Assembly: GCA_963808125.1 (NCBI GenBank)
Contig: CAWEEP010000007.1
Coordinates: 12,820-76,819 of the forward strand
DNA from: Candidatus Dormiibacterota bacterium
GTDB taxonomy: Bacteria > Chloroflexota > Dormibacteria > Aeolococcales > Aeolococcaceae
Direction of reading: 5' to 3'
Length of the DNA: 64,000 nt
The notes under the pieces were generated by a model. That model did not search any database and was not told the origin of the DNA. It saw nothing but the letters and a program-made list of their open reading frames with translations. Within the stretch, counting starts at the first letter, position 1. Each line of letters begins with the position of its first letter. Below, piece by piece: positions 12,654 to 64,000 of this stretch. The translations under genes were made by a program, and so were the position numbers.

Positions 12654-12941
12654 TTGCCCTTGCCGGACGTGATGATGGCTGTCGACTTCCGTGACTATCT
12701 GAGGGATCGCTGTCGGGAGCGCGGCGTGTCCCTACACCGTCTCGCCTTGCTCTGCGATCTCAACCAGATCTACTTCTACCAGGCGGTCAACAAGAACAAG
12801 GACAACCCGCCTCCCTGGGTGCTGCGCCGCGCCGCGCCCCACCTGGGCGTCACCTACGTCGAGCTTCTTATCGCCGCCGGCTATCTCACCGAGGGCGAGA
12901 TGCAGGAGTGGACGTCGAGGGGTCCGGCGGGGGGGGCCTGA
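12654..12941 (+). CDS. Small helix-turn-helix DNA-binding protein (XRE-like)
   Basis: FRDYLRDRCRERGVSLHRLALLCDLNQIYFYQAVNKNK fits an HTH_3-type fold. The start could be ATG 12672/12675. Confidence 0.5.
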   Translation: MPLPDVMMAVDFRDYLRDRCRERGVSLHRLALLCDLNQIYFYQAVNKNKDNPPPWVLRRAAPHLGVTYVELLIAAGYLTEGEMQEWTSRGPAGGA

Positions 12942-19864: not shown

Positions 19865-20767
19865 ATGCGAGTCGCCGTCCGCGCCCCCGCCAGCATCGCC
19901 AACCTCGGCCCCGGCTTCGACATCCTGGCACTCGCGATCGATCTGGAGAACGAGCTCGAAGCGTCGATGGGTGCCGGGGAAGGCCTCACCATCGACCCCG
20001 GCTCGGGTGCGCCCGATGAGCTGCGCGACCCGGAGAAGAACCTGATCTGCCGCGCCTTCGTCTCGACATGCGTGGCGGCCGGCGCGGACGTCCCCGGCGG
20101 AGTCCATTTCGACTGCCGGAACGTGATCCCCTTCGGCCGCGGGCTCGGTTCCAGTGCCGCCGCCACCCTCGCCGGCGTCCTCGCCGCCAACGCCCTCGCC
20201 GAGCTCGGCTGGGACGAGGACCGGATCATCCGTCACGCGGCGAGGATCGAGGGGCATCCCGACAACGTCGCCGCGGCCCTCTTCGGCGGCCTGGTCATCT
20301 GTGCCGGCGACGTCTCGGCCGTCCGGATTCCGGTGCCCGAGCGGCTGCACGCCGTCGTCTTCGTCCCCGACACGGAGATGAGCACCGAGGTCGCCCGCGA
20401 GCTGGTCCCACTCGCCTTCTCGCGAGAGGACGCCATCCACAACGCCGCCCGCTGCGCCCTGCTGGTGGCGGCGATGCTGACGGGCGATCTTCCCCTTCTC
20501 GGCGAGGCGATGCGCGACCGGTGGCACCAGGCGGCGCGGAGTGAGGTGATGCCCCACGTCCCCCTGGCCATCGAAGCCGCCGTCGCCGCGGGAGCCCACG
20601 GCGCCTGCCTGGCGGGGGCCGGCCCGGCGGTGCTCGCCCTGTGCAGCGGCGACGACAGCGAGGTCGGCCCGGCCATGGTGGCGGCGGCCAGGGTCGCATC
20701 CGTCAGCGGCCAGGTCCAGACCTTCGGAATCCGCAACGCGGGAGCCCAGGTGGAGGTCGCGCCGTGA
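19865..20767 (+). CDS. thrB: Homoserine kinase
   Basis: PASIANLGPGFD; GHMP motif PFGRGLGSSAAA. Confidence 0.92.
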   Translation: MRVAVRAPASIANLGPGFDILALAIDLENELEASMGAGEGLTIDPGSGAPDELRDPEKNLICRAFVSTCVAAGADVPGGVHFDCRNVIPFGRGLGSSAAATLAGVLAANALAELGWDEDRIIRHAARIEGHPDNVAAALFGGLVICAGDVSAVRIPVPERLHAVVFVPDTEMSTEVARELVPLAFSREDAIHNAARCALLVAAMLTGDLPLLGEAMRDRWHQAARSEVMPHVPLAIEAAVAAGAHGACLAGAGPAVLALCSGDDSEVGPAMVAAARVASVSGQVQTFGIRNAGAQVEVAP

Positions 20768-46895: not shown

Positions 46896-48517
46896 TCACC
46901 GACTGCTGGACGCCGTTCCGTCCTCACACTCGGCGTCGCTTGGTGCCGAAGCCGCAAAGTATATAGGCGTCAAGGACTCCAGCAACCCATCCGCCGTCAT
47001 GCATTCGAGGCTTGCAACAAACTTGGGCTGCCTCGCCTGTAACCGCTTATAGGTTTCCTCTGGCGCCCACACAATCAGCAATTCCCTTGAGCGTGTAACG
47101 GCGACGTAGGCGATTCGCCTCTCCTCACGATCCTTATCCGCGGATGACCACCAGATCCCCGATGGGCAAGATTTTCCGGTTGTCGGAGGGCAGACGAAGA
47201 TCGTGACGTCGTGTGTCTCGCCCTTAACGCCGTGCACCGTCCGGACGGGCACCCTTCCCAGCATTGAGAGGGGGGCCGCGGTACCGGGAATGTATTCGCT
47301 TGAGGGCCTGTTCCAGTCCGTCCTCTTCTGGGGCTTCAGCTTGCCGGGAATAAGTCTTAACGAGGTGGGCAGGCCGAACTTGCCGACCTCCTCATTGGCG
47401 ATTGCGCCGATCTGGTTTTGGAGGTCATAAGAGATTTCCGGTGATCGGGAGTTGATTGGCTCGTAAGAGACAGTCCACCGCGAGCCTCTTCCATCGGTTC
47501 GGTTCTACTCCGGCGACCTCCAAGGTCGTGTCCAGTACTCCTTCGTGCCCGAAGATTACAAGGTCTAGGGCTGCCCGGGCTGTTGCCAGCGCTGCACCGT
47601 TGTTCTCCCTGACGGAACAGTACAACTGCACGACTCAGGTGCGAGAGTGGAAGGCAATGGAGCTTTGGGATCGCTTTTGCCATTCTTCCAGTTAATGTCT
47701 CAACGGTAGCGTTTTGTCGTGCAACCACCTTGATGTTCGCTTCGGGCTTGGCACCGCGGATCGCTTCCACCAACCGATTCACTTCGCTGGTCATCTCGTT
47801 GCCAATAACGAGAACTGCCCGTCCTGTTTCTCCAGTAGACCCCAACGAGCCCCCGGACTCCTTTAAATGTGTGGCTACCGATGCGACCGCTGAAGGGCAA
47901 CGACGACTAGTACGGAGCGGTACACGGACCGCGCCGAAATGGATTCGAAGCGATCAAAAAGGTCAGGGCAAGCGCCGTTGAACTCAAAGATGGACTGATC
48001 CGGGTCTCCCGCCAGAACGCCCTGTGCCATCGGCGCAGAGAGTATCGTCAGTATGGCCTTGCCGAGGAAGTAGCCAGTGTCCTGCAGCTCATCAATAATG
48101 AGAAAGGGAACCGCCGAATAAGCTGGTAACAATTCGGGGGCCGTGGATTTGGTGACATGCGATCCTGCTTGCCCAGAACGCCGCGTCCGAATGTGTGAGA
48201 CATCCTGACCGTTTCCACATTTCCCACTTAGCCTTCTTAACGTCTTTCAATTCCTCCCCTGCCAGTGGTTGCAGTGGATGGGCGGGGTGTGGCTTGTAGG
48301 CCAGGGTCGCGCCCTGGTTGTTTTCGCCAATGAACACGCAATCGAAGAGGTTGATCCCCTTATGGCCAACTGTGGCGTTTTGGTCCTTGGCGAACTTGCT
48401 CCAATGACGTGCCCCCCATTCCCCCGCGATCAGCCGCGGCGCTGGAAAGCCTTGTGAACAGAGAACAAAGAACGGGCGAACCAAATAGCGGAACAGGAAT
48501 GAGTCGATTGTTCCCAC
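46896..48517 (-). pseudogene. UvrD/PcrA-like superfamily-1 helicase fragment (N-terminal ~90 aa with Walker A missing; at least 4 frameshifts)
   Basis: GTIDSFLFRYLVRPF (TxHSF-like), FLIIDELQDTG (motif II), GDPDQSIFEFNGA (motif III), TVHGVKGETHDVTIFV and YVAVTRSRELLIV (motifs V/VI), spread over ORFs 48092.., 47875.., 47357.., 47425.., 46896... Confidence 0.7.
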
Positions 48518-48954
48518 GAAGTGTCCATGACCCGTGTCGCCGCCGTGAACAATATGCCCTCCCGGCGCATCCGCCGCTGCGCGCAGACGTTTTTCATCCC
48601 GGCCGGCAGTGGCACACGACCGCGCGATTACCCGCTGATGGTACACGCGGGCGTACGTTCTGGCCGCGGGCAGATCGGCAAAGGTGACTTCCGGGCCAGG
48701 CACCTCGGGCCGCGAATCAATTGCCAAGTAGTGCAGCAATAGAATACGCCAGACAGGGCCGACTTCGCGGCCGGCCGATGTAGTAACGCGTCTGGCCGAT
48801 AAATCCACTGTCAGCAAATCGTTCAAGACGGGAATCCGCGAGCTCCCGTATTCAAGCTGACCCGAGCCATAGCAACTGTTCGGAGCTTCTGATTGCACAC
48901 GGCATTGAAGGCCAATTCGGCCGCACGCCGGAGGTTGTCTTGGAATTCGGGCAT
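48518..48954 (-). pseudogene. DUF3786-family protein, N-terminal two-thirds only
   Basis: ATG 48954. MPEFQDNLRRAAELAF.., GPVWRILLLHYLAIDSRPEVPGPEVTFADLPAARTYARVYHQRVI..LRAAADAPGG fits the DUF3786 core. Runs directly into helicase sequence with no C-terminus. Confidence 0.55.
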
Positions 48955-48981
48955 CCGCGACGGTCCTTGATTTGCTCTGGG

Positions 48982-49037
48982 TAGGGTGCGTGAAACGCAC
49001 CGCCTCCTACAAATTGTGGTGCGTTTCACGCACCCTA
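48982..49037. repeat. Perfect 20-bp inverted repeat; each arm is itself a small hairpin
   Basis: TAGGGTGCGTGAAACGCACC (48982-49001), a 16-nt spacer, then GGTGCGTTTCACGCACCCTA (49018-49037). Each arm contains GTGCG-N5-CGCAC. Lies between the HD-hydrolase stop and the DUF3786 start. Confidence 0.9.
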
Positions 49038-49054
49038 CAAAAATCCACCACCTC

Positions 49055-49791
49055 TTAGGTGTGGAACAGGCTGCGGGCCAGGGTACGCTTGCCGCCTCCG
49101 TACGCAGGCTGCTGCTTTAAATCAGGTTTTCCCATTCGCCGGAACTGCCTGCGAAGGCGTTTCGGCCGCCATCCGGCGAGCGTCTGCGAGTCGCAAACTA
49201 TCTGGAACTCGATTGTATTCGGTGTTTTCGGCCTTTTCGACAGTTCTCCAGGATCTGGCAGACCCGCCGGGCCGTATCCGGGTCCAATCTGATGTGCTTA
49301 AGCGCCTGGTCCACTGTTGCCGTGGCTTTGGGCAGGCTGGCTAAATTGCTCAGACGGATTTTCGATGAGGCCGGAATTATACACTTCGCTTGCCATCAGC
49401 AATGCCGCGTTTGGCGCTACACGCAGGATCCCCGCCCTCTTTTCGGGCGAGTTCTTTGGCAAATTGAAAAACCCTCAGTGCATGGGCTATGCAAGCCGGG
49501 TCGCTTTTAATTCCTGTTCCAGCCACTGAATCAATCGGGCGGCACGCAGGTTTCCATACCGCGCCCTCCGGTTGCCGCTGTGGGGCATATCCCAGGCACT
49601 CAGTTCGCCAGCGAGCACCACTGGGCACAGCCGAAGTCGGTGGGGGAGTTGAGAAACTTATGGCCGCATCGCCGGCAGCGGCCCGCGTTTTCGTCCCTGA
49701 AAATTTCGACGGGGTTGCCACACTGGGGACACGGCACCTCGACGACCGCGTTGCCCAACCAGTATCGTCTGTCTTGACCCGGACATTTCAT
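49055..49791 (-). CDS. Zinc-ribbon + HD-domain phosphohydrolase-like protein (frameshifted)
   Basis: N-terminus MKCPGQDRRYW..VPCPQCGNPVEIFRDENAGRCRRCGHKF..DFGCAQWC. Downstream pieces in other frames are HALRVFQFAKELARKEGGDP.., ..RRVCQILENC.., ..EFQIVCDS.., ..GGGKRTLARSLFHT*. Confidence 0.55.
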
Positions 49792-50580
49792 GGCGATTTA
49801 ACCCTCTTAGGTTATTATACGTAACCGAACTAAATGGGATTTATGAATTGTTGGGCTGGGCGAGAAGTTGGTCATAAAAAGGCAAGTATAACAGACGGCC
49901 AAAAAGTTGGCTTTAGATTTGGAGTTAGGGCGATTATAATGCGGTGAAATTACTGGGCATCGAAAAGGCACGTGAGAAATTAAATGTTAATAAATATTTT
50001 TAAGTCCATATAGGATAGAGGATTGCGGCGAAATGGAGGAGAGACGAAAATTGTGCCAAATGTGAATTGAGAGTTAGGCCGATGACGGGAGAATATAAGT
50101 CGGCGAAATTTGTTTTGGGCAGGATGTTAGTATGTCGGAATGCAATATGGCGTGGATGTGAAGTCGGAGTTTGCCGATGGCAATTGTCGTCGCGCTACGG
50201 TGCAATTGCTATGATGTAAAGTTGGAGATTAACAATTAAAACTAACTCAGTGCCCATTTCATATCCGTTTCTTACTCCCTAAACGTAATCCGACCCCTTC
50301 TAACCCCCGCTGCAGCATGGATTTCAGCAAAATTGATGACAATTTCGTGCGGAATGGTAGACTGACTTTATCGTCTTTCATCTCTTTAAGGCCCAACAAA
50401 TAGAGGCAGCGTTCGTACCTCATAGCCTGACGCTCTGAAAAGAGAGGCTTCGGGTGCGTTTGACACGGCTCATAGCGAACCGACCCCTTGAAGCAAATGC
50501 CGGAGATATCTGGCTTTTGACCTTCGTTTTCATTCTTACTTCATATCTTAAAATCCTGTAACTACTGGGGAGATTTTACA
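49792..50580. other. 789-bp ORF-free, AT-rich divergent intergenic region with degenerate direct repeats
   Basis: No ORF of 60 aa or more on either strand. C content is only ~12% on the + strand over ~49,840-50,230. Imperfect repeats occur at ~49,917-49,968 and ~50,064-50,122 (TTGGAGTTAGGGCGAT..GCGGTGAAATT..TGGGCA versus TTGAGAGTTAGGCCGAT..GTCGGCGAAATT..TGGGCA). Confidence 0.6.
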
Positions 50581-51653
50581 ATGAACCGAAAATTATTTTT
50601 TCTGGCCGTGCTAATTTTGTGTTTTTTTGATTTGTGGTACTGCTCAAGCGATTGTCCAATATACGGTCACCAACCTGGGCACACTGGGCGGGACTGGGAT
50701 AGCTGTGCCTTTGGCATCAACGACAGCGGGCAGATCCTGGCGCAAGGGAAGACACCACCACCGCTTATCATGCTTTTCTTACAGCAGCTCGACAATATGA
50801 CCGATATTGGAACACTCGGCGGAATGTACAGTGAAGCCAAGGCCATCAACACCAGTGGGCAGGTCGTGGGCTGGGCCTATACTACTGGAATTCAGCATGC
50901 CTTCATCTACAGCAATGGAACGATGTGTGACCTTGGCTCACTTGGCCGGCAGAGTTGTGCCTGTGGCATCAACGCCAGTGGAAAGGTCGTGGGCTATTCC
51001 CTCACCTATCAGTACGATGATCATGCCTTTCTCTACAGTAATGGGACAATGACCGACTTGGGCGTACTTGGTGGAGATTACAGCTATGCCTATGGCATAA
51101 ACGACAGCGGGCAAATCGTGGGCTATTCCGATGGTCATGCCTTCCTTTACAGCGGCTCGACGATGAAAGACCTGGGAACACTCGGCGGGACGACTAGCAG
51201 GGCCTATGGCATTAACGCCAGTGGTCAGGCGTGGGATATTCCGATAACAGCGTCGTGTTTCGCACGCCTTCATCTACAGCGACTCGAAGATAGAAAGACC
51301 TGGGCACCCAGGCCGGATCGTATAGCTATGCATATAGCGTTAATGATAGCGGGCAGGTCGTGGGCTATGCCTTGGCCAGCGGCTTTGCCGATCCTCATGC
51401 CTTTGTACTATAATGCTCGAAGATAATCGACTTAAACGCCCTAATCGATTCGCTCTCCGGCTGGACATTGAATGTTGCATATGGCATTAACAACGCCGGG
51501 CAAATCGTGGGGCAAGGCGTTAAGGGCAGTGGGTATCCTCATGCCTTCTTGTTAACACCCGTGCCAGAACCTTCCACGTTCCTGCTTCTAGGTTCCGCAC
51601 TGCTGGGACTTGGCAGGGTTGGGTTAATTCGTCGTGGTGTAATGAAGAAGTGA
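50581..51653 (+). CDS. HAF-repeat extracellular protein with PEP-CTERM sorting signal (several frameshifts)
   Basis: Signal peptide MNRKLFFLAVLILCF... At least 7 repeats of GIN[DA]SGQ[IV]VG....HAF[LI]YS.G.M.DLG[TS]LGG. C-terminal VPEPSTFLLLGSALLGLGRVGLIRR. Confidence 0.8.
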
Positions 51654-51748
51654 GAAGGAAAGAATTAAAGGGCTACGTAGTCTTTGTCTTCACACAGATA
51701 GATAACTGAAGGCGTGTTAGACATAGAGATTATCCTAAAACCTCCGCT

Positions 51749-51990
51749 GTCATCCTGAGCGAAGCGAAGGATCTCTGTGGAAGTGGCATTTTGTCTGCAT
51801 TTTACCTGCAAAACCTTCCGGATTCTCACTGCGCTCGAATGACGACTATAATCTTCGCCGGCATCAGAATAACGTGAACAAGATTCTTCGCCGCGCACGG
51901 TCTGGTTTGACAGAGATTCTTCGCTGTGCTCAGAATGACATGACTAGATTCTTCGCTGTGCTCAGAATGACATGGCAGTTCAGAATGACA
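51749..51990. repeat. Cluster of ~25-29-nt GTCATYCTGAGCGAAGCGAAGRATC-type repeats in both orientations
   Basis: GTCATCCTGAGCGAAGCGAAGGATCTC at 51749-51775. Reverse-orientation copies at 51821-51843, 51851-51872 and 51881-51900 (degenerate). Two identical 29-mers AGATTCTTCGCTGTGCTCAGAATGACATG at 51914-51942 and 51946-51974. Partial copy at 51980-51991. Confidence 0.85.
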
Positions 51991-52028
51991 TTACTGTTTT
52001 AGGATAGAATCATAGACTACCAACCCGT

Positions 52029-53440
52029 CTAGCCCTTTGACTTTTTTGAGAAGAGAAACTTGGTCGCGTGCAGAGTTTTGGCAAGGAATCCATGGCGTGC
52101 GGCGATTAACAAGACTTTCCCACACAGTCGCCAGGCGGTCATCGGGCGAGCCAGGCGGGTTTTTGGGAGATGCGTTGGCGGAATCGCAGCAGTTCGTTGC
52201 GAACGGCCTGAAAAAACGCCGATTCCCGGCGGGCGAGGAGCAGATCTGTTTCCCCGGACGACGGAGGACAGATGGCCAGGCGTTTTTTCGGCACATAATC
52301 CGAGCGTTTCGGCCGCAAATTGGCAACGGGCCGCCATTAGGCCCCTTCGCCGGTTGAGCACCCCGATTTGGCTCTGCTCGGATCCGTCCGGCGGCGATGC
52401 CGCCGCCTTCGCATTCGCCCGAGGTGAACAACGTCGAGCAGGATGCGGCTGATTTCTTCGCTGCGTGAAATCACGAGGCTGGTCCCTCGCTTATCCGCTT
52501 GATATTCGGGCAGCCAGGCATCCATGAACGTTGCATCGGCCAGTTTCGGCAAACACATCGTCGCAGAACAGGCAGCTTCGGCAGCATGCCGACCTCGTTG
52601 ATCCACAAATAACCGAACAGGCCGAGCATCCTCACGGAGCGCACGGATTGGTCCGTTTTCAATTCCGCCCGATAATCGCGGCCGGTGTGCGAGTAACGCT
52701 TGGAACGATATCGCAAGACGCCCTGGGAGCGGCCCATCAAGGCCGTCAACAGATCGGCAAAAAGCAGGCTGCGATAGCCGCTGCAGGTGAGCCCGAGGAT
52801 ATAGCGGATCCGGCGCCGCAAGGCCGGCAGGCGTTTTTGCGCCAGCCGAAGGGCCTTGGCCGCGCAGGGAAGCGCGACAACGGCGTATGAGCGATCCGGC
52901 CCGGCCAGGACGTCGGAAATCGCCTTGTCGAAAGGAGCGACGTGATAGACCGAACCCCGGGAACCAGAACCTGCGATTCGCTCTCGGGCGACTGACCGAA
53001 TGAAACCATGGGCGTCGGTCCAGCGGTTGAAGCACGATTGCCGCGTCGATGCGCTTGAGTTTCAGCAGTTGGCACAAGACCGCCGTGGTCAAGGCCGCCG
53101 GAGGGGGCTTCCAGTCGCCGGGCCTCATCGGCGACGCCGCCCACGAAAGCGTCGCGGACCCAGCCCATCGACGCATGATGCACGCAGGCCGGATCCGAGC
53201 CGAACAATTCCTTGCCGAGGCTGTCTTCGTCCCGCCGTGTTCGTTGGAAAACGGGCAGACCTGCAGGCACAAGCGGCACGACTCGGCGCACTGTCCCGTG
53301 GCCGCGGGATGATACTCGCCCAACTGGGTTTCCTTCATCTGCAATTGACGGCGCGGACAAACGGCGGCGCACATGCCGCAGTTGCAGCAGTAGTCCTGCC
53401 GGACCACGGTATCCAAGATGTTCATCGGAGGCAAAGTCAA
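52029..53440 (-). CDS. FrhB/FdhB-like (coenzyme F420 hydrogenase beta-type) Fe-S flavoprotein of polysaccharide-modification clusters; multiple frameshifts
   Basis: N-terminal ferredoxin motifs CCNCGMCAAVCP and CRLCLQVCP. Internal ..SGGL.T.., ..ESESQVL.., ..RIRYILGLTCSGY.., ..ADATFMDAWLPEYQADKRGTSLVISRS... ATG 53440 overlaps the pyruvyl transferase stop. The 3' end is uncertain. Confidence 0.6.
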
Positions 53441-54693
53441 TTCGAGGCCCCTCGTTCCCGGAGGAGTTGTTGCAGGAATTCGCCGTTTTTCCAGGCGGTT
53501 TGGGAATAATCCGGGATAAACGACTGCAAATATTCGCGCACCGCGGCTTCTTCCTCCAACAGCGATTGAACCCGCTCGGCCGCTTGTCCGGCGTCAAGCT
53601 GGGCGACGTGGACCACCCAGTTCTCATGTCCGAAAATATCGCGAAAGATTCCCCGGGATTTGATGCTGTGTCCGATGCAGAACGCGGGGACGCACGACGA
53701 CAGGGCGGCGATGATGGAATGCAGGCGCGAGCCGACAAAAACCTTCAGCCGGGAGATTACCCATTTGATTTGCTTGCTGGAGTGGCGCCGGGCGTCGTAA
53801 AGAAAAATGTCCTTTTTCTTCTCCGGCGGCAGCGCATCGAGCAGGGTTCGCATGAATTGGTAATCGTCGTTGTCGGGAAAGATCTGCGGCGGCATCATGA
53901 CATGGGGTATCAAGACGATGGGAAGATCGGTTATCCTCCGAATCGCGGCCAACATGTCCAACGCCTGCCGCATCCACGCGCGCGAGGAAAGGTTGTTGTA
54001 TCTTTTCATCAGCGGCGCCAGGTTGACGCCCAGCGCCCCGGCCTGCAATGCCTGCTCGATTTCGTGCGGCAATTCCACGGGGCAGGCGGGCAAAAGAAAT
54101 GCCGGATCGGCCGCCCGGCGGATATTGTCGCGCACCCCAAGCCCCTCCAAATACTCTTGCGTGATCGGTTCCCGAACGGTAATTAAATCGACCCGGCGGA
54201 GCAGATCGGCGAATCGGCTTTCCCATCCTGGTCTTTTGGAAAAGGGGCCGATTGATGCTCCCCAGACGACTGTTGGGACGCCTTTGCGGACCGCGGCCTG
54301 AAGCGGGCTGAAAAACAAGAGCGTGGCCAGAAAACCGTAATCGTAAGACAGATTATCTCCGCCCAGCGCCAGCAGAGCCGCCGCGTTGTCCAGGGCACGG
54401 TGCGCTTTCATTGCCGGAAACCGGCCCAAAAAGCGGGAACAAACGATCCGCGTGCCCCAGAGATAAAAGGCCGGCGTGCCCTGCCGGCGTGTTTCCCATA
54501 TTTGTCCCGCCGATTTAGCGTCCGGCTCGTTGGTAACGAATTGAGGATCGTCGTTGCAAAAAATGTTGGCATACAATCGCGGATAATCGGGCAAGTAACG
54601 ATCCAAAATCATTTGCGTGCTCAACCGCAGGGCCTGGCAGCCGCGGTTGCTGTCGAAGTTGTTGCCGTGCAGTACAATATAGGGATGGTTCAT
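53437..54693 (-). CDS. Polysaccharide pyruvyl transferase (WcaK/CsaB family)
   Basis: Intact 418-aa ORF. HGNNFDSNRGCQAL, LALGGDNLSYDYG, ITVREPITQEYL, FVGSRLHSIIAALS. Confidence 0.8.
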   Translation of the reverse strand: MNHPYIVLHGNNFDSNRGCQALRLSTQMILDRYLPDYPRLYANIFCNDDPQFVTNEPDAKSAGQIWETRRQGTPAFYLWGTRIVCSRFLGRFPAMKAHRALDNAAALLALGGDNLSYDYGFLATLLFFSPLQAAVRKGVPTVVWGASIGPFSKRPGWESRFADLLRRVDLITVREPITQEYLEGLGVRDNIRRAADPAFLLPACPVELPHEIEQALQAGALGVNLAPLMKRYNNLSSRAWMRQALDMLAAIRRITDLPIVLIPHVMMPPQIFPDNDDYQFMRTLLDALPPEKKKDIFLYDARRHSSKQIKWVISRLKVFVGSRLHSIIAALSSCVPAFCIGHSIKSRGIFRDIFGHENWVVHVAQLDAGQAAERVQSLLEEEAAVREYLQSFIPDYSQTAWKNGEFLQQLLRERGASN

Positions 54694-54944
54694 GGTATTT
54701 TATTTTTTATTGGCGGCATTCTCAGTATACAGTTCTTACTAAAGACTGCAACCTCTTGGCGCATCACGACCGACTGAATATACTTTTTCCGATCCTTGAT
54801 ATAGTTTACACAGCATTGTTAGCAGAATAATCGATCGTAAATTGGAAAATCTATGACCGGATTCAGTATTAGTATAAGTTTTGATTCTCGTTGCTTTAGC
54901 GATAATCTCAAGGATTTCTCGCGATTGCCTTTATCCGGGCGATC
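54694..54944. promoter_or_regulatory. AT-rich divergent promoter region
   Basis: 251 bp at ~38% GC between divergently oriented starts (54693 minus, 54945 plus). Several TATAnT-like hexamers (GATATAGT, GAATATACT). Confidence 0.4.
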
Positions 54945-56115
54945 ATGCGTTTTCGTCAGGGACTGGCCCGCGATCCCACTTCTCCACGGACGGCGGTCGT
55001 CTTGTGTCTGCGAGGCCGCGACCCGTTCCTGGAGAAGTGCCTGGAATCGCTGCTTAAGCAGGATTATCCCGACTACCAGTTGCACGTGGTCGTCGACAAT
55101 CGGCAGGACCCGGCGTGGCAAGTCGCCGAGTCGCTGGCCAACCGCTACGGCGCGGACCGGGTGTGCATCGAGGCGCTCGACGAGCGCCAGGACACGTGCA
55201 GTCTGAAGTGCAGCGCCGTGACCCAGGCGATCGGAGCGTCTCGACGAGTCGTTTCAAGCGGCGGCCCTGGTCGACGCCGACACGATGCCGCATCCGTCGT
55301 GGCTCGGCGAACTGACGGCTCCCCTGGCGGATGAGCACATCGGCGCCGCCACCGGCAATCGCTGGTACATGCCCGGGGCCGGTTCCTGGGGCGCGATGGT
55401 GCGTTATCTCTGGAATGCCGCGGCCATGGTGCAGATGTATTGGTACGAGATACCCTGGGGCGGAACGCTGGCCGTCAAACGCAAGGTGATCGACGAACTG
55501 GGGCTGCTCGACCGCTGGCGCAACGCCTTCTGCGAAGACACCATGCTCTTCCGGCAGCTCGGCAAGCGCGGGCTGCGCGTGAAGTTCGTTCCCTCGTTGA
55601 TGATGGTCAACCGGGAGGATTGCGGGCTTGGGGCCTGCCTTTCTTGGATCCGCCGGCAACTCCTCACGGCGCGGCTCTATCATCCGCTATGGCCGCTGGT
55701 CTTGTTGCACGGATTGGGCACCACGCTGGTCCTGGCCGCCGCCGTGGCGCGGCGGCGATTGCCGCGCTGCGGGGCGATTGGTCGGCGGTCCTGTGGTGCG
55801 CAGGCGGCCTGCTGATTTATGAGACAATCATGGTTTCCCTGCTGATTCCCATGGAAATCGCGTGTCCGCCGGATCGTGCGGTCGCAGGGCGGGCCGACAG
55901 GGTGGCTTTCGGCGAAAACTCTCCTTCGCCTGGTTCCGGCCATCGTGCTCACGCAGTTGGTTTACACGCTCGCCTTGCTCGGGGCCCAGTTTGCGCGGAA
56001 GGTCGACTGGCGTGGAGTCTGTTACCACATCGGCGGTCCTTGGGACATTCGGCGGCTGGACGATCCGCCCTATGATTCAGAATTGCCATGCGTCGCGGAT
56101 GGGCATTCGCTCTGA
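54945..56115 (+). CDS. Membrane GT2-family glycosyltransferase (GT21/ceramide-glucosyltransferase-like architecture); at least 3 frameshifts
   Basis: VVLCLRGRDPFLEKCLESLLKQDYPDYQLHVVVDN, LVDADT (DxD), WGGTLAVKRKVIDELG, FCEDTMLF, then TM helices (LWPLVLLHGLGTTLVLAAA..). The tail ..VDWRGVCYHIGGPWDIRRL ends at 56115. Confidence 0.7.
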
Positions 56116-56137
56116 AAAGCTGAATCGGTTGGGTGCC

Positions 56138-56162
56138 ATGCCCACGCTTGGCGTGGGCATGT
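56138..56162. terminator. Perfect 11-bp stem hairpin between convergent genes
   Basis: CATGCCCACGC-TTG-GCGTGGGCATG. Confidence 0.5.
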
Positions 56163-56237
56163 TGAGAACGCGTGAGAAAACTGCGCCAAGACCCACGCAA
56201 GCGTGGTGCATGGCACCAGGCACCCCTTGCCCGTAAA

Positions 56238-57576
56238 TCACTATCGAATGCGGCAATCGAGGCGTGGATCCGCCGCACGAAGGTTTCCAGCAGGTCGGTC
56301 GCCTGTTGTTCCGTCAGGGGCCGGGGGTCGTAATGCAGGGTGATGCCCAGCCTGTGGGCGTACAGCGCAACGACAATCGTCACGCACGAGTAAGGGCGCA
56401 CGGGCGCCACGAATATCCGTGTCCTCAAGCGTCACGTTGCCGGCCACAATGACATTCGTCGCGGCGGGGCAAGGGCACATGTGCCAGAAGGTTTCCCACA
56501 TTCGTGAAGATGCAGGATATGGTGCATTTGTCCGCGCGAACCTTCTTCTCCAATCCGCCCAGGAATCGCCGGCAGATGGCCGTGGAAAAAATGAAGGTAA
56601 AACCCAGTTGCAAACGCTTGATCAGGTCCATCTCCTCGTGGATGCCGCGGAGCAACCGGTCGGGATCGGCGAAATCCGGCCCGCGACGGTCGAGGAACAC
56701 GCTGCTGACCATGTTGGCGGCCGGCATCGAGTCGATCGTCTGTCGAGCGCAGATTCATGGGAATCATCATCCGCAACCAACTGCCGTCGTCGTCGATATT
56801 CTGCCGCACGCGCCATTCGGCCAATCGCCAGGAACAGGTCGCGGGCCAACAGGTCGTTGGAGGTCACTCCCTGGCGCATCGCCGCCTTTCGCATGCCGGC
56901 AGTGGCCTCCCGATCGAAGAGGTAATGCACCATCGCCGGGTAGGTTTTCGGCAACGGGGAGTCGTCGGGACAGGCGCGATGGGGAATCAGCGGGGCGGGC
57001 TTGCGCATCAGGAATTGCCGGGCGCCGAGAAGGCCCACGAGCTGCTTGCGGCGCCATGCGGAGCAGCTTTCTCAGAGTCAAACCGAATCGGCCGCGACCG
57101 GCCAATTTGCCGGGATCGAGCGTCGGCAAGCCGGGCCCGGTTCGGCGCAGTGCCATAGGCCATGGCATAGGCGACCAACAGCTCCCTGAGGAACAAGGCG
57201 AATCCCGCCCCGTCGCAGCAGGAGTGGTGAAACTGGATGGTCAGGTCGGAGTCCGTCGCCTCGGTGCGGACGTGGAAACGAATGCCGATCTCCCGCCGCA
57301 GATCCAATCGCGTGGCCGGGGGCAACGGGCCGCCGACCGGAGCGATTCCCACTTGATCGCGGGTGCGGGATTATCCACAGTGGACCATCGCAGCCGGCCG
57401 CCGGCCGCATGTTTCGATCTTTGGCGGCCAACAAGAGGATGACGCGCCAGGACTGTGCGCACGGCCGACTCGAACGCCGCCCGATCCAGACATCCCGAAA
57501 ACCGCAGGCGGACAAAACAACTCCAAGGATAGGCGGGCCGGTCCTCCCAGTAAATAAACTCCTCCATGGTCGTCAA
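56238..57576 (-). CDS. Stand-alone condensation-domain acyltransferase (HHxxxDG family: NRPS C / PapA5 / WS-DGAT-like); at least 4 frameshifts
   Basis: MTTMEEFIYWEDRPAYPWSCFVRLRFSGCLDRAAFESAV.. and the catalytic motif IQFHHSCCDGAGFALFL. Downstream pieces are ..GVTSNDLLARDLFLAIG.., ..MMIPMNLR.., ..NMVSSVFLDR.., ..LGITLHYDPRPLTEQQATDLLETF... No adjacent A or T domains. Confidence 0.65.
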
Positions 57577-57591
57577 GTGGCAAAGACAAAC

Positions 57592-58435
57592 TCATGGCGG
57601 ATTCTCCTGTTTTTCCGCGTTTCCCCTTTTAAAAAGCCTCTGCAAAATGCCGCGGTGCATCATCCAAGTAATCACCCGGTGCGAGAAAAAGCTCTTCAAA
57701 GTGTAGAATTCCCGGAAATGTTGCGAAGATCTTTCGTCCTGCCCGATTTTTTGAAAGAGGATCATATTTTTCACCGGGCAGCGCATTTTCCGATAGTCTT
57801 TGCGGTTCCGCCGTATGAACGAACCGACCAATTGCGTGCCTCGCATCCAGGCGTCGTGAAAAAGTACGTAGCCTTGATCCGCAAGAAGCAAGTCGACGTA
57901 AAAAGAAATCGACAAAAATCGAATCGTAGCGGTGGTTGCCGTCAATAAAGGCGAAATCAAAACTCCGCTGGGCGGTAAGCAGTTGAGGTAGCACTATGTA
58001 GGAATAATCCGGATGGAAATCCAGCCGCCCGCTATATCCCAACGAGGCGATGTTCTCCAAGCCCAGGTTGCCATATTGATCTTGAAAGGGATCCATACAC
58101 GTATGTGTGCCATGGTGCGCCGACATGATCGAGCAGGCCGAGGCCCCGTGGGCCAGTCCGATTTCCAGGGTCCGGCTCAGATTATGTTCCTTTACCCAAC
58201 GGTGCATGAATTCTCCTTCCACCGGGCGGACGGAAATATAGCGCTTTGCCTCCGGAATGCGAATCCGCCCAAGCAATTCTATAATATCCACATTGGCATT
58301 ATCAGGTGCGGGCGAAGCGATATTATCGTGATACATGACAGGCCTCTTTCGCCGGATTATTTTCAGATAAATTGTCGCCTGTTCAAGCATTTCCAAGAAA
58401 GTCTCCCGGCTTGAATGCTGAAATTGAAATCCCAA
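57592..58435 (-). CDS. Class I SAM-dependent methyltransferase (Methyltransf_24 / O-MT family 3-like); one frameshift ~57,915
   Basis: LEIGLAHGASACSI, FAFIDGNHRYDSIFVDF then (shifted) FYVDLLLADQGYVLFHDAW. The alternative start ATG 58390 removes most of the overlap with the upstream gene. Confidence 0.7.
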
Positions 58436-59312
58436 CTCGCTGAACCAACCGGTTGGAGGCCACGAGCCAGGGATAGCGGAGAAAGTAGAGGAAACCCGGC
58501 GGATATTTGTGGGGCGGAAAATGCGTCTTCCACGCCATCCAGGCCAAGAGCCGTCCCAGCCAAAACGGCGCGCTCATCCGCCGCCGACCGGTCAGCTCTC
58601 CGAGCTCCGAGATAGAGATGGTATCGGGCGGAGCGAGATTGTAGGCTCCCGTTCCCTGTCGAACCAGAATCCGGTGAATCGCCGCCGAGACGTCGTCCTC
58701 GTGCACCAATTGAATCGCCGAATCGACGCCATCCAGCAAGACGATAATCGGCATCTCAAAGAGCAGATGCCGCAAATAATTGTCCATGCGGGGACCGCCC
58801 ACAATGCACGGCCGCACACAACTCACGGCAATTTGCGGATGTTCTTCGGCGAACCGGACGAGCATCGCTTCCAGTTCGACCTTGTGGGCCGCGTAAGAGA
58901 ACTGGGGTCCTGCCCGACCCGGCCAGGAGTCGTCCAGCGGCACCGGGTTGTCCGGCCAGGCGCCCAGGGCCGTGGCGCTGGAAGTGACCAATAGGCGTTC
59001 CGCCCCGCTGCCGCTGTCGCCTCTAAAACATTCCGGCTGCCCTCCAAGTTAATCGCGTGCATCTTCCGCTCATCGTGCATCGGCGGCACGACAAAGGCCA
59101 TGTGGACCACCGTGTCGGGCTGGAAGATCTTCAGCGCTTCCACAAGCTCCGGGCGGCGCATGTCGAGTTGGAGGAACTCGTGACCGCCGGGATCCCGAGG
59201 CGGCACGATGTCCAAGCCCAAGATCTTCAACTTCGGGTTCGTGCCAGGCGAAGTATCGAATCAGACTACTTCCCAAATAGCCCGAACTGCCTGTGATAGC
59301 AATGCGTTTCAT
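58383..59312 (-). CDS. NAD-dependent epimerase/dehydratase (extended SDR); two frameshifts
   Basis: MKRIAITGSSGYLGSSLI (GxxGxxG), ..DTVVHMAF.., catalytic YAAHK, ..VRPCIVGGP.. Confidence 0.75.
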
Positions 59313-59366
59313 CCAATGTGCCGGCCAGAAGTGTGCTGTTCTGCGGGATCAAAGATCGATGGGGTA

Positions 59367-60859
59367 TTATAATGACGGTTCGACGAGCCGAGCAATTCCA
59401 CGAACCGCGGCGGCCTGGAGTATCGCGGCTAGGAGCACTCGGCTCCAATCCGTTCCCCTCGATGACCACGCGGCCGATTCGCACTGCCTCGGCAGCCGCC
59501 AGATCGCTATCGCCCAAAGCCCGAAAAGTATGTGCATCGAGTTGGAAAACCGCCGAACACTGCGGACCAAGTCCGTCTTCGACCTCCGTCAACCGGCCGT
59601 TGTGCAACATAAGCTTCCACTGTCCTCCGGCAGGCCCGCTTATGTCCAATCCGAGGCAGTGATTTCCCCAAAGGTTCGGAACCATGCGGCATGTGGTGGC
59701 GGGGCAATTTGTGCATGTGATCGTGGATATCAAAGTCCGGCCGGATCCTTCGGCGCTGAGTTCTTGCCGAAATTGCTTTGGATGGCGTAGCGCACAGATT
59801 CAGAAGCATTGCCGCGTCCATCTCCGGACATGCCAGCGGTGCACGCAGCCGCCCGTTGAGTATCGTCGAATTGCGGATCGTCGCGCCAGATAGGCCCGGT
59901 AAATTTCCATCTGCTGGCGGAAATTATCGAGGAACCAGTCCCCGTTGCAGAGTAAAAGATCCTTTTCGTCGGCCAGGGTGGAATACTCTTCCACGGCATG
60001 TTGTATTACATTGGCTATCAGCGTAAGCGTGGGCGGCCGTTGTGTAACCAAATGGTAGGTTCGGCCATGCAAGGCTTTTGGGAAAAAATGTGCGTAAGCA
60101 CCGCCGAGACCCAATCGACAGGCACAAGATTCTTGCATTCCTTGCCTGTCAGTCCCAAACCTTCCACCAGGTAATGCCCGGCCGTGGAGCCGCGCACCAT
60201 CCGGCTGACCAGAGTGTGCACAACTTCACCATCACGTAAAAACCGTGAAATGTCGCCGTATAGCCCGTCTGGGAATCGCCCACGATGATTGACGGGCGAT
60301 AGATCGTGGGCGGATCGATCCAGGGACTGGCCAAGACCAGCTTCTCGGCCTCAATTTTGCTGTGTTCGTAAGCGTTTCCGGGCGTTTGGCCGACGTCTAA
60401 CTCGGTCTCCAGCACTCGACCCTGGCGCAGCCCGCACACATATGCAGTGGAAACATAATGTAATTGGCGGATCCCCGCAGTGCGGCAAAGATCGAGGATC
60501 CGCCGCGTGCCCTCGAGGTTGCTGAGCCAAGGTTCGCCATCTCGTCCGTTGCTATGGAATGTCAGGTTGGCGGCATTATGAATCACGGAGCGGCAATGTC
60601 GCGAGATCCACCGCAGGTCGCCGCCGTCCAGACCAAGATCCACCTCGGTCAACTCGCCCTCGATCACCACGGGCCGAGGCAAGGGTGTCCGAAGTTCGGC
60701 TTCAAAACGAGATAAGATCGATTCGATCCGTCGCCGAGCCGATTCGCGTTTGGACGGACGCACAAGCACGGCCAGACGATGTCCCTCTCGGAGACTATCT
60801 CGCAATAAATATGATCCCAGCAGCCCAGTGGCGCCGGTGAGCAAATGGTATGTCATCAC
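59367..60859 (-). CDS. Thioester/fatty acyl reductase (NAD_binding_4, 'male sterility' type) fused to a C-terminal SCP2 lipid-binding domain; several frameshifts
   Basis: LLTGATGLLGSYLL, VIHNAANLTF, HYVSTAYVCG, NAYEHSKIEAEKLV (YxxxK), IYRPSIIVGDSQTG. C-terminal GLDISGPAGGQWKLMLHNGRLTEVEDGLGPQCSAVFQLDAHTFRAL..GRVVIEGNG. Confidence 0.7.
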
Positions 60860-61051
60860 TAGACCTTTGGCAGACTTAATAGATTAAACAAAATTTGCTT
60901 TCCACCGCTAATCAAAACGACACAAACTGCCGATGAGCACATCACGTCGTGCTCTTGATTACTGCTTTAAGGGATGCATAGCCCCCAATGCCGCATTAGT
61001 GGAGATTACCTAATATCATCTTCATGATGGAAGGGATCGTCAAGCGGGTCA

Positions 61052-61533
61052 TTGACCATAAAATCTAACCTGGTCCATCTTTTTTCCCCGAGAGTTACTA
61101 CTACCCCGAGACGGATCGACATGGCTATGTGTTCAAACTGGACGTGTTGCCCCCCGCGTCGGGGAAATCCTAGCCAAGATCGGCAAGAAGGCGGGGGTGG
61201 TGGTCAACAAGGCCGATGGGAAGTTTGCAACAACCCATGACCTACGCCGATCTTTCGGCCAAATGGGCAAAGAAGGTAATGCCGGCCGTCTTGCAACGGC
61301 TTATGAGACACGCGAACATTGCCACCACGATGAAATACTATGTCACCCTGGACGCCTACGATCTGGCCGCCGAACTTTGGGCGGGATTCGGTCCAAGAGC
61401 GGGCAACGAATTGAAAAACGGCAACACTTGCGGCAACACTCAGCCCGAAACGGCTGAAAATGATATAACGGGCCCCGCCGAAACATCGACGGAACCCGTT
61501 ATAAGCGAACATCTTGGGGATTTGCTATCTTAG
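61052..61533 (+). mobile_element. Tyrosine recombinase (phage integrase) C-terminal remnant, frameshifted, N-terminal ~200 aa missing
   Basis: ..KFATTHDLRRSFG.. (box I/II region) and (shifted) ..VLQRLMRHANIATTMKYYV (HxxxxxT..Y catalytic Tyr). Confidence 0.75.
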
Positions 61534-61557
61534 TGGACAGGGCCGGGATTGAACCAA
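61534..61557 (-). other. tRNA 3'-end-like fragment (T-loop plus acceptor strand), candidate att site
   Basis: The minus strand reads TTGGTTCAATCCCGGCCCTGTCCA, i.e. GGTTCAATCC followed by a 7-nt acceptor-like strand and a discriminator A. No matching 5' half or anticodon arm nearby. Immediately abuts the integrase stop. Confidence 0.45.
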
Positions 61558-61603
61558 AATGTCGTAAGTGTTGCTATTAAAGGAGTTACGAAAACAGCCA
61601 TTT

Positions 61604-61639
61604 CCTTATCTGACACCTTATCTGACACCTTATCTGACA
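61604..61639. repeat. Perfect 12-nt tandem repeat x3
   Basis: CCTTATCTGACA CCTTATCTGACA CCTTATCTGACA. Confidence 0.95.
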
Positions 61640-61862
61640 ATTGAAGCTCCCAAAATCATGTGGTTATGCCTGCCAGTCTCCCGCTGGTTTTTTGTCCCTT
61701 ATATAGATGGCCTTCGCTAGGACAATGACCTCTGACCATGTACCCTGCCCTTTTGGCCCGGACCAGCCATTCCTAATGGCCGAATGAGCCACTGGCCACG
61801 GCCTCTCGCTTCAGTGGTGGACCGCACCCAGTTGCTAAGAAGAACCCAAAACGGAGACCAAC

Positions 61863-62394
61863 ATGATTCACTTTATTTGTTGTGGTTGTGGTGCAGCACT
61901 AAATATCGGCGACAAATGGGCCGGGCTTCTCGGTCGCTGCCCGCACTGTGGTACGAACACACGACTCCCCGGTTACCCAAAACGCACTTCGAAGTTGCTT
62001 ATCTTGTTTCGCATTGGTTGTATCCCTTTTGCGATAGTGTTTTTTTGGGCCTTGATGTTATCGATTGCTGATGCAGATCTAGCTTTCCACTTCATTCTGG
62101 GTGCAGTAATTGCGTTTGCTGTAATCATGCTTTTCCTATGGGGAGTGTACAAATCTTCTCACGTTCCTTTCTGGACCAAGAGAATATCTTTTGTGGAAAA
62201 GGGGTGGAGGAGATCCATTTTTTGATACGATCGATGGACCGTTAAATAATGACCCTCCAGAGGTCAGATTTCAAGAATTATTTCGTGAGAAGGCACGACA
62301 GGAGTGGGAGGCTAATTTTGGCCCACTACCGATGCCTAATTCTACGCCTCCTTCAGATTCCACAAAAGGTATCGACGACCCGGACGTAATTTAG
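61863..62394 (+). CDS. Zinc-ribbon membrane protein, paralogue 1 (one frameshift ~62,165)
   Basis: MIHFICCGCGAALNIGDKWAGLLGRCPHCGTNTRLP (CxxC..CxxC), then 2-3 TM helices. The tail (shifted) is LWKRGGGDPFFDTIDGPLNNDPPEVRFQELFREKARQEWEANFGPLPMP..DSTKGIDDPDVI. GGAGA Shine-Dalgarno. Confidence 0.65.
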
Positions 62395-62403
62395 GAGAAC
62401 AAT

Positions 62404-62907
62404 ATGATTAACTTTAACTGTGCTAGTTGCCATAAATCATTGTACATTCGTGATGCAATGGTTGGGAATCTAGCCGCTTGTCCGTATTGTTGGGCGGAGA
62501 CTGTGGTACCGAATAGTCCGATGCGAACTTCAAAGCTGACAATCATAGGACGTATGGTAGCTATACCGATGATAGTGGTGTGTGCCGTCGGTGCTTTGTT
62601 AGGAGCACCGGTGATTATTGGAGGTGCAATTGGTCTTGCTCTTATGCTTGGATTCTGGTGGGCTTTCACCAACATTGGCACATTTTTGATGAATCCAGGG
62701 TATTACCGGCTTTGGAAAAGGGGCGGGGGAGATCCTTGGTATGACTCAATAGATCCCACCGTTTAATAATGACCCGCCATCTGTTCGTTATCAAGAAATG
62801 TTCGGGAAAAGGCGAGGCAGGAGTGGGAAGCGAGTTTTGGCCCATTACCAATCCCGTCTCTTCCTCCCGATTCGACAAAATGGATCGACGATCCGAACGT
62901 GATTTGA
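62404..62907 (+). CDS. Zinc-ribbon membrane protein, paralogue 2 (two frameshifts ~62,760 and ~62,805)
   Basis: MINFNCASCHKSLYIRDAMVGNLAACPYCWAETVVP, then TM helices. The tail is LWKRGGGDPWYDSIDPT/(shift)NNDPPSVRYQEMF/(shift)EKARQEWEASFGPLPIP..DSTKWIDDPNVI. AGGAG Shine-Dalgarno. Confidence 0.65.
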
Positions 62908-62916
62908 GGTGATTTT

Positions 62917-63036
62917 ATGGGAATAGGTATTTTCTTGTTTATCGTCGCACTCATCGTGTTGGCTTCATTGCAATATCACACCGATATGAATCGTCTCCAC
63001 GATGATTATGAGAAGTGGAAAAACAATAGAAGATGA
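62917..63036 (+). CDS. 39-aa single-TM peptide
   Basis: GAGGTGA Shine-Dalgarno 5 nt upstream. MGIGIFLFIVALIVLASLQYHTDMNRLHDDYEKWKNNRR. The stop overlaps the next ATG (ATGA). Not in the supplied ORF track because it is under 60 aa. Confidence 0.45.
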   Translation: MGIGIFLFIVALIVLASLQYHTDMNRLHDDYEKWKNNRR

Positions 63037-63385
63037 TCACCCGCTTCGTCTGTATTCGATGCGAGGGCAAAAAGTGTCTCCGCTGCATGGGCCGAGGTTG
63101 GGTCGGTGAGACTCTCGTGCGAATTGAACGGCAGAACAAGCTCGCCGAAGTCGTCGCCACGAAACTAGTGCAAAAAAGATCGCTGAAGTGGGGCAGGAGG
63201 AATGGGTGAGGCGGGCGGTTGAGAAGAATCTGACCGACGATCAGTTCACCGAAATCGAGATTTGGTCAGCCACCGGACCCATCAAGTACCAACTGATGTG
63301 CCTGACCAACGAAGTTCTTGATGCTCTCGCAGACCTGGCTGGGATTGAGATGCCGCCAGTCTTTGTGGCGGACCAGCCGAGTTGA
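63033..63385 (+). CDS. Small protein with DnaJ-type CxxCxGxxCxxCxGxG zinc finger (frameshift in an A6 run ~63,170)
   Basis: MITRFVCIRCEGKKCLRCMGRGWVGETLVRIERQNKLAEVVATKLV then (shifted) KKIAEVGQEEWVRRAVEKNLTDDQFTEIEIWSATGPIKYQLMCLTNEVL.. Confidence 0.5.
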
Positions 63386-63948
63386 ATGTGGATTGGATGA
63401 GGAGTAACAACGTGGAAGACCAACACAAAATCAGAAAATGGATAAGATTCGCCTGTGAACGCAACGAAGTCCCAGAATTGGCTCAGATGTTCTTGGTCGA
63501 ATGGAATACCAGATTCACTTGTCGCCTTGGGGATGCAATCTACAACCGGATCACGATGGGAGCAAGGATACGGCTTAGCGTGCCTCTCTGGCCCCGATCC
63601 TCGGAAAATGATCGCGAGAGAGACGGTCATTCACGAAACGTGCCATCGTAATCGTTGGCTTCAAACACGGGTATGTCCCTCGCCCTCACGGCTGCCGAAT
63701 GGCAAAATGCGATGCAAAAATGCGGTTTGAAACCCCATCGTCTCCACAGCATTGACCGCACTGGACTGGCTCGACGGCGACGATTGTTTATGCTGTGCAA
63801 TTGCCCCAAAGAGCAAAAATGTCGAATCCTTGTTAGGCAGTTCAATCTGGTGCGTCGGGGAGAGGAATTCTGGTGCAAGGTCTGCGGCTTGCATCTCAAT
63901 CGGGAGTCGGCCATCGAAGAGGATCTGACGGCCAGTGCAACGGTATAA
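63382..63948 (+). CDS. SprT-like zinc metalloprotease with C-terminal zinc ribbon (two frameshifts)
   Basis: FLVEWNTRFTCRLGDAIYN..IRLSVPLW, (shifted) ETVIHETCH (HExxH), (shifted) EWQNAMQKCGLKPHRLHS..CNCPKEQKCRILVRQFNLVRRGEEFWCKVCGLHL. Collinear with E. coli SprT. Confidence 0.7.
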
Positions 63949-64000
63949 ATAATTCTGACGTTCATATCCATTGCCTTGCAAAATTTGCAATATTCCCTGC

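Follow-up and report, generated by a model that had tools for sequence, protein, structure and literature searches.

The 64,000-nt stretch of contig CAWEEP010000007.1 analysed here, referred to as the window (positions 12,820 to 76,819 of the forward strand, assembly GCA_963808125.1), carries at 61863-63948 on its plus strand a low-quality copy of a genuine, conserved and uncharacterised Planctomycetota gene cassette. The small inner-membrane protein at the core of this cassette consists of an N-terminal zinc ribbon, a two-helix transmembrane (TM) hairpin, a tail of the type LWKxGGGDPFFD..P.N.D..R, an amphipathic helix and a C-terminal IDDPNVI, and the core protease is a soluble SprT-family HExxH zinc protease with a zinc ribbon of its own. 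Optional parts are a second membrane paralogue, a 39-aa peptide that is translationally coupled to a zinc-knuckle helical protein and, sometimes, an unannotated protein of 250-390 aa. Our leading interpretation, held tentatively and with slightly less than even confidence, is that of an accessory cassette found only in Planctomycetota, built on the hairpin protein and the SprT protease, in which the hairpin may tether the protease. An original prediction, made from the letters of the window, had described five tightly coupled genes of the same strand next to an att-like site, and several of its claims are revisited below.

Five coding units and their proteins

Reading of the region in three frames reveals five consecutive coding units on the same strand, of which only the 39-aa gene C is an intact open reading frame (ORF). 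A four-way DNA alignment with homologous loci (loci carry L numbers below, and proteins P numbers) shows that the other four are each broken by 1-nt indels, with nine window-specific indels in total within 2.1 kb. Gene A (61863-62394) has an insertion near 62146 and is followed after 9 nt (62395-62403) by gene B (62404-62907), with an insertion near 62751 and a deletion near 62803/4. Another 9-nt spacer (62908-62916) leads to gene C (62917-63036), whose stop codon overlaps the start of gene D (63033-63407) as ATGA at 63033-63036, an overlap kept in other loci. Three deletions fall in gene D, near 63173/4, 63378/9 and 63392, and three insertions in gene E (63412-63948), near 63616, 63647 and 63694. 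Once corrected, the window proteins are 60-87% identical to intact homologues, and the tight coupling proposed for the five genes is borne out by the 9-nt gaps and the ATGA, all of which are conserved. A further overlap of D and E, a TTGA read at 63382, turned out to be an artefact because two of the window indels create it. In intact homologues the D stop lies a few nt before E, and in the window the corrected D ends with TAA at 63405-63407 and E likely starts with GTG at 63412, behind AGGAG. Programmed frameshifting was rejected, since the indel positions vary between copies and intact homologues exist.

After correction, A is a protein of 176 aa and B one of 167 aa, and the two are 54% identical, their duplication being visible in the DNA as direct repeats D7-D9 with spacings of 519, 520 and 519 nt. 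A is 80% identical to the intact protein P0001 over 100% of its length, and B, which belongs to a separate B-type clade, is 79-87% identical to the intact B genes of L003, L014 and L020. In A, a zinc ribbon (CxxC..CPHC) is followed by a TM hairpin and then by a predicted cytoplasmic tail with the motifs GGGDPFFD..NNDPP..REKARQEWE..IDDPDVI. The tail motif of the family as a whole reads LWKxGGGDPFFD..NNDPP..VRYQE..REKARQE..DSTKxIDDPNVI, so that the description of A and B as tandem paralogues with a conserved tail holds across the family. An AlphaFold model was built for the intact homologue P0001 from a 36-sequence family alignment and reached a pLDDT (predicted local distance difference test) of 84. 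In it, residues 1-35 form a four-strand zinc ribbon and residues 44-69 and 71-103 the TM helical hairpin. The invariant W-K-x-G-G-G-D-P-F-F-D is surrounded by short helices, an amphipathic helix spans 132-152, and the C-terminal end with the conserved IDDPNVI is modelled at low confidence. The original prediction had given each paralogue a zinc ribbon, which is present, and two to three TM helices, which the model and hydropathy replace with a single TM hairpin. Hydropathy and charge distribution put both ends of A and B on the cytoplasmic side, and by the positive-inside rule the ribbon and the tail would both face the cytoplasm.

No significant match was found for the corrected A, B, C or D proteins in Pfam, NCBIfam, PHROGs or PADLOC, and the A model had no Foldseek match in the PDB or BFVD at E<=0.001, in agreement with the earlier statement that the paralogue tail was not recognised as any named domain. 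Homologues of A are readily found: A retrieves 72 mostly full-length A/B proteins, the best at 80% identity over the whole length, and an exhaustive profile search of 1.84 billion representatives returned a small family of 27 clusters at E<1e-30 and 99 clusters at E<1e-10. Distant relatives (P0199, P0212, P0238, P0250 and others) keep an RTSK-TM-TM-GGDPyfD..P.N.D core and have their zinc ribbons, one to three in number, at the C-terminus rather than the N-terminus, which is, judging by sequence, a domain permutation inside an unannotated superfamily. In ten such relatives, all that Pfam gave was zinc-ribbon matches below threshold, and only in three of the ten. The first 35 residues of A and B, a four-strand CxxC..CxxC ribbon, resemble TIGR04104 (cxxc_20_cxxc) and LysW/RpoP-like ribbons. 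The TIGR04104 match is weak (E=0.046), as is the Foldseek alignment to LysW (TM-score 0.63 over 38 residues, E=2), and ribbons of the A/B type recur in many other multi-ribbon proteins in the exhaustive profile search. What distinguishes the A family from other zinc-ribbon membrane proteins is not the ribbon but the RTSK-hairpin-GGDP..P.N.D core that defines it, which is without an annotated counterpart. A and B also differ from ZAS anti-sigma factors, as they carry CxxC..CPxC and not HxxxCxxC.

The assignment of E as an SprT-like HExxH protease was upheld. After frameshift correction, E matches PF10263 (SprT-like) with E=3.9e-15 and 56.1 bits against a cut-off of 25.6, and it contains HETCH, a third His (that of PRPHG) and a C-terminal Cys4 zinc ribbon; HE(T/A)CH, the downstream His and the Cys4 ribbon are kept among the E homologues inspected. 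At least 139 homologues exist, and all of the 120 listed are annotated PF10263. Against the NCBIfam SprT model NF003421, E scores 47.3 bits over model positions 55-166 of 170. E is not the E. coli SprT orthologue, because 47 bits lies far under the equivalog cut-off of 175. While E has the HExxH, downstream His ligand and C-terminal Cys4 ribbon in common with E. coli SprT and PF10263, it differs from that family in being linked to a dedicated membrane partner; we know of no established biochemical role of E. coli SprT that could be transferred. Candidate Rosetta-stone fusions among longer SprT homologues were discarded, as the extra sequence at their N-termini shows no conservation and resembles over-called starts. 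Pfam identified no DNA-binding domain in E, and hydropathy analysis found no hydrophobic segment in it that is fit for a signal or an anchor.

The nearest known systems resemble the cassette only in part. E belongs to the protease fold family of SPRTN and Wss1 and aligns with the Spartan structure 6mdw (E=0.0055) in the catalytic core only. Unlike SPRTN and Wss1, it has no detected ubiquitin-, SUMO- or DNA-binding modules, it is partnered with a membrane protein, and its distribution is accessory and patchy. ImmA/IrrE with ImmR-type repressors, and the antirestriction protein ArdC with its SprT-like domain, couple a zincin to a specific partner on mobile elements, often near integrases, which is the same coupling as that of the cassette's HExxH protease. 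The cassette partner is, in contrast, a membrane hairpin protein and not a helix-turn-helix repressor or a single-stranded DNA-binding domain, and no sequence match to ImmA/IrrE- or ArdC-type families was found for the cassette proteins in Pfam, NCBIfam, PHROGs or PADLOC.

Gene C encodes a single-pass membrane peptide with its TM segment at residues 1-22 by hydropathy, and tblastn found homologues of 50-82% identity at the same position in many other loci. D is soluble, and in it a CxxCxGxxCxxCxGxG zinc knuckle at the N-terminus precedes a four-helix domain. A database search returned 34 D homologues, all at least 62% identical. The AlphaFold model of D has a pLDDT of 77, with low confidence (52-67) in the knuckle segment, and no Foldseek match in the PDB at E<=0.001. 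D had been called a DnaJ-type zinc-finger protein. Since it has no match to PF00684 (DnaJ_CXXCXGXG) in Pfam at E<=1, that label reflects a motif resemblance only: PF00684 is defined by four CxxCxGxG repeats forming two zinc centres, and D has CxxCxGxx followed by CxxCxGxG.

Distribution and architectures of the cassette

Approximately 70 loci are homologous to the cassette, which places the feature far beyond chance. All taxon-labelled matches are from Planctomycetota, and the genome matches comprise the Pirellulales metagenome-assembled genome (MAG) MFD04492.bin.2.107, which has two copies on different contigs, two Planctomycetaceae MAGs and one Thermoguttaceae MAG. A metagenome scan contributed 56 further loci. 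Sixty-six distinct loci contain an A/B gene, and among the 54 that are informative an SprT gene is adjacent in 44. The two observations that would have counted against the original prediction, namely a tail belonging to a characterised family and homologues that never co-localise in other genomes, were both looked for, and neither was made. In a reciprocal search started from three further SprT homologues, A was the adjoining gene in two, and the third had a D-like fragment only. The gene orders observed are A-E (15 loci), A-C-E (12), A-C-D (11), A-C-D-E (10) and A-B-C-D-E (5), and permuted orders also exist, such as E-A-C-D-G in L073. Because the architectures span the range from A-E to A-B-C-D-E, A and SprT constitute the recurring core and B, C and D are add-ons. 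In the library searched, literature on SprT together with operons, defence or Planctomycetes gave no description of the cassette.

A sixth gene, G (250-390 aa), adjoins the cassette on either strand in about 12 loci, often after D where SprT was not detected; examples are L070 8960-9724, L073 1938-2693, L010 1585-2754 (minus strand) and L011 7970-9094 (minus strand). G has no match in Pfam, PHROGs or the PDB. Neither Pfam nor the PDB supports reading G as a sigma factor with A as its anti-sigma factor. Four or five further small genes without annotation (81-151 aa), which have no Pfam or PHROG matches, recur as a second set a few kb from the cassette in L001 (10741-12664, minus strand), L002 (13264-14628, minus strand), L007, L012 and L067.

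The leader and its possibly mobile neighbourhood

At the DNA level the copies resemble one another only in the cassette and a leader of about 100 nt, and the flanks are different in every locus. In the window the leader occupies 61759-61862 on the plus strand. It is conserved and non-coding: a pair of GGACC boxes is spaced by about 70 nt, the core motif is CCATTCCTAATGGCCGAATGAGCC, and the ATG of gene A is preceded by the Shine-Dalgarno sequence GGAG. Its DNA is conserved in most loci, including those with distant architectures, and this conservation was seen across about 30 loci. RNAalifold found no conserved RNA fold in 18 leaders, and a riboswitch or leader RNA was dropped as an explanation on this ground. 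Rfam had no match in 61000-64000. Given the lack of both a fold and an Rfam match, the leader probably acts at the DNA level, where it would probably serve as a promoter or operator and possibly also as a recombination target. In L011, about 100 nt of the leader (1870-2010 and 6830-7003) are duplicated around a 5-kb insert with a tyrosine integrase and an IS91/Y2 transposase. As these leader copies, which resemble attL and attR, flank an integrase/IS91 insert, the leader may be an integration hot spot. The window itself shows no such duplication of the leader. When viral contigs were scanned for the leader motif, the sole match was the contig already known.

Upstream of the leader, at 61123-61533 on the plus strand, lies the C-terminal remnant of a tyrosine integrase with an internal frameshift near 61258, the N-terminal two thirds being missing. 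Its merged translation matches PF00589 with E=3.7e-7 and 30.5 bits (cut-off 27.1) over profile positions 112-166 of 172 only, and in the PDB it aligns with residues 242-303 of the Tn1549 Int structure 6emz (E=0.0095). The remnant keeps HDLRR ... RHANIATTMKYY and is, as read, an integrase fragment and not a functional integrase. It ends at 61533, 330 nt upstream of A and thus close to the distance of about 300 bp first reported, and a minus-strand NAD_binding_4 gene lies upstream of it. A tyrosine integrase is also found directly upstream of A and on the same strand in L053/L070 and L054, and about 1.8 kb upstream of A in L011. In L053/L070, which is in an IMG/VR contig, this integrase has 481 aa and lies beside TerS, TerL and a ParB-methylase. 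In L054 (4300-5500), a full-length tyrosine integrase is followed by a short C-terminal remnant of a different, L070-type integrase, and then by about 470 nt of conserved non-coding DNA that are 84% identical to L070 and run into gene A. This order suggests successive insertions at one site.

Other signs of an attachment site were sought in the window. A 12-nt unit, CCTTATCTGACA, is repeated three times in perfect tandem at 61604-61639 (100% matches in Tandem Repeats Finder), between the integrase remnant and the cassette and outside the region common to other copies, in which homology starts at about 61759. This repeat has no second copy in 44-64 kb, no partner att-type repeat for 61534-61760 was detected in the same interval, and the window has no tRNA gene according to ARAGORN. 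On the minus strand, 61534-61562 bears a superficial likeness to the 3' end of a tRNA, which was not relied upon, as the homologous stretch of L070 encodes the integrase C-terminus. The att-like site initially proposed beside the cassette was thus not verified. The proposed link to mobile elements fared better: it is favoured by the integrases near A in four loci, the locus with TerS and TerL, the MAG with two copies and the differing flanks, while most cassette loci have no mobile genes nearby, and the family is absent from phage and plasmid records.

Downstream of the cassette, a palindrome, TTGCAAAATTTGCAA, occupies 63976-63990, 28 nt past the E stop codon, and the window ends 10 nt later. 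The palindrome is common to L004 and partly to L001, where a convergent 83-aa gene comes next; the window stops short of that position. Farther from the cassette, a plus-strand ORF at 50581-51426 has six to eight copies of an internal repeat of about 126 nt (about 42 aa, with GINxSGQxVG-type units) and a weak DUF3466 match, and it probably encodes a repeat-containing surface protein. An apparently non-coding tandem array of units of about 33 nt (AGATTCTTCGCTGTGCTCAGAATGACATG), with two perfect and two degenerate copies, is present at 51848-51995. At 48981-49038, two perfectly inverted 21-nt arms separated by 16 nt (GTAGGGTGCGTGAAACGCACC / GGTGCGTTTCACGCACCCTAC) make a strong hairpin at the upstream end of a minus-strand DUF3786 ORF. 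In the high-GC head of the window, the homoserine kinase encoded at 19865-20767 is identical in protein sequence to ones in the short-read assembly Logan ERR11523672 and in JGI metagenome 3300037092.

Origin of the frameshifts and possible function

The frameshifts implied by the original prediction are present, but they are not a minor blemish, as the whole low-GC tail of the window is affected, and sequence quality is the most likely reason. The alternative, which we consider improbable, is that all nine are real and that the window copy is a decaying, non-functional pseudogene relic in a degraded integrated element. Such a relic would account for nine indels in 2.1 kb and for an adjoining integrase that is truly truncated and itself frameshifted. 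It would also fit the tail of the window (46900-64000), where GC content is 46-66% and the other genes in 47-61 kb are broken as well, with the epimerase, UvrD-like helicase and NAD_binding_4 reductase genes all split. The truncated integrase and the broken tail genes are also the points that weigh against reading the cassette genes as intact. However, the dN/dS ratio of the window copy to L001, L003 and L004 (0.18-0.20) is as low as that among those three copies (0.18-0.24), no stop interrupts the roughly 670 codons of the corrected frames, and every residue that is invariant in the family is retained. Lesions of natural decay are usually biased towards deletions and of mixed length, whereas all nine lesions here are 1 nt long and comprise five insertions and four deletions. 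Similar indel damage is seen in the independent contig L001, while L002, from the same metagenome assembly (ERZ25039519), is clean. The head of the window (1-46900, about 72% GC) is also undamaged, with all ten tested housekeeping genes (EF-G-like, thr operon, aspartokinase, YchF and others) at full length by domain matches. Given the low dN/dS, the lack of stops, the retained invariant residues, the uniform 1-nt lesions, the clean head and the contrast between L001 and L002, the nine indels are very probably consensus errors of a low-coverage, strain-variable or chimeric stretch, and the cassette genes are probably intact in the organism. The step in GC content between head and tail, together with the frequent frameshifts in tail genes, points to a low-coverage island, to strain heterogeneity or to a chimeric join. 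Sequence quality is much lower in the last 17 kb of the window than in the first 46 kb, or these 17 kb may have another origin, and frameshift-aware gene calls are needed there.

If the predicted topology is correct, every soluble domain of the cassette would meet at the inner face of the cytoplasmic membrane. The hairpin protein could then tether and gate the SprT protease at the membrane, with the conserved tail of A as a docking site for the protease, its substrate, or both, and C and D might be accessory or regulatory subunits. A role in stress signalling or in inter-element conflict, for example in exclusion or an abortive response, is conceivable at low confidence. Our best guess, also of low confidence, is a membrane-tethered protease module that is carried as accessory or mobile cargo. 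A more specific proposal appears unlikely, namely an undescribed, Planctomycetota-specific membrane-anchored protease system that acts in inter-element conflict or stress signalling, with the protease held or activated by the GGGDP tail and the leader doubling as an attachment site for several integrase-bearing elements.

Several observations weigh against a tethered accessory protease or against its use in conflict. A, B, C and D have no homology-based annotation that points to a function, and a physical interaction between A and E is suggested by gene linkage alone. The 11 A-C-D loci have no detected SprT gene, and because six of these extend at least 1.5 kb downstream without one, SprT is not strictly obligatory. 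Conversely, one SprT locus adjoins a D-like fragment and has no A. The family was not found by tblastn in 50,697 phage and 72,556 plasmid records, it occurs in 1 of 2.9 million viral contigs, and the five cassette proteins matched 0 families of PADLOC-DB v2 at E<=1. A conflict system is only weakly indicated as a result of the absence from phages and plasmids, the single viral contig and the lack of a PADLOC match.

Together with the pseudogene, two other explanations rank below a hairpin-tethered accessory protease. In one, E would act like SPRTN or Wss1 in DNA-protein crosslink repair, with the ribbons of A, B, D and E binding nucleic acid near the membrane. While E does have a bona fide SprT-like domain with a zinc ribbon, and the cassette contains four further zinc-binding modules, the similarity to Spartan is confined to the protease core and no DNA-binding domain was identified. 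The cassette is moreover accessory, patchy, multi-copy and sometimes without E, unlike housekeeping repair, and its obligatory partner, a hairpin protein of the membrane, has an acidic tail. A role in crosslink repair is thus the less likely function and, on our estimate, a very improbable one; none of the tests supported the membrane-to-DNA system or the anti-defence cassette suggested at the outset. Equally improbable is a phage-type lysis or superinfection-exclusion cassette in which A and B are a holin/antiholin-like two-TM pair, C is a small membrane partner and E is the effector enzyme. A and B are indeed small tandem proteins, each with a TM hairpin and a charged C-terminus that is predicted to be cytoplasmic, the one IMG/VR locus lies beside an integrase and TerS/TerL, and the window copy adjoins an integrase remnant. 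A holin-endolysin pair, however, combines a TM holin with a muralytic enzyme in phage genomes, and E matches no family other than SprT-like and lacks the hydrophobic signal or anchor segment; the phage genomes searched contain no match, the A model matched no viral structure in BFVD, and most loci are on large chromosomal contigs without phage genes nearby.

To our knowledge, bacterial SprT-family proteases are widespread and have almost no assigned biology. The cassette gives one SprT clade a fixed genetic partner, an unannotated membrane family with a distinctive motif, in a unit of two to five or six genes. A tethered or gated protease, with the tail of its partner as dock or substrate, is a concrete and testable hypothesis for that clade. 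The accessory genome of Planctomycetota, which is poorly annotated, gains with the cassette a defined protein family and a candidate hot spot for integration.

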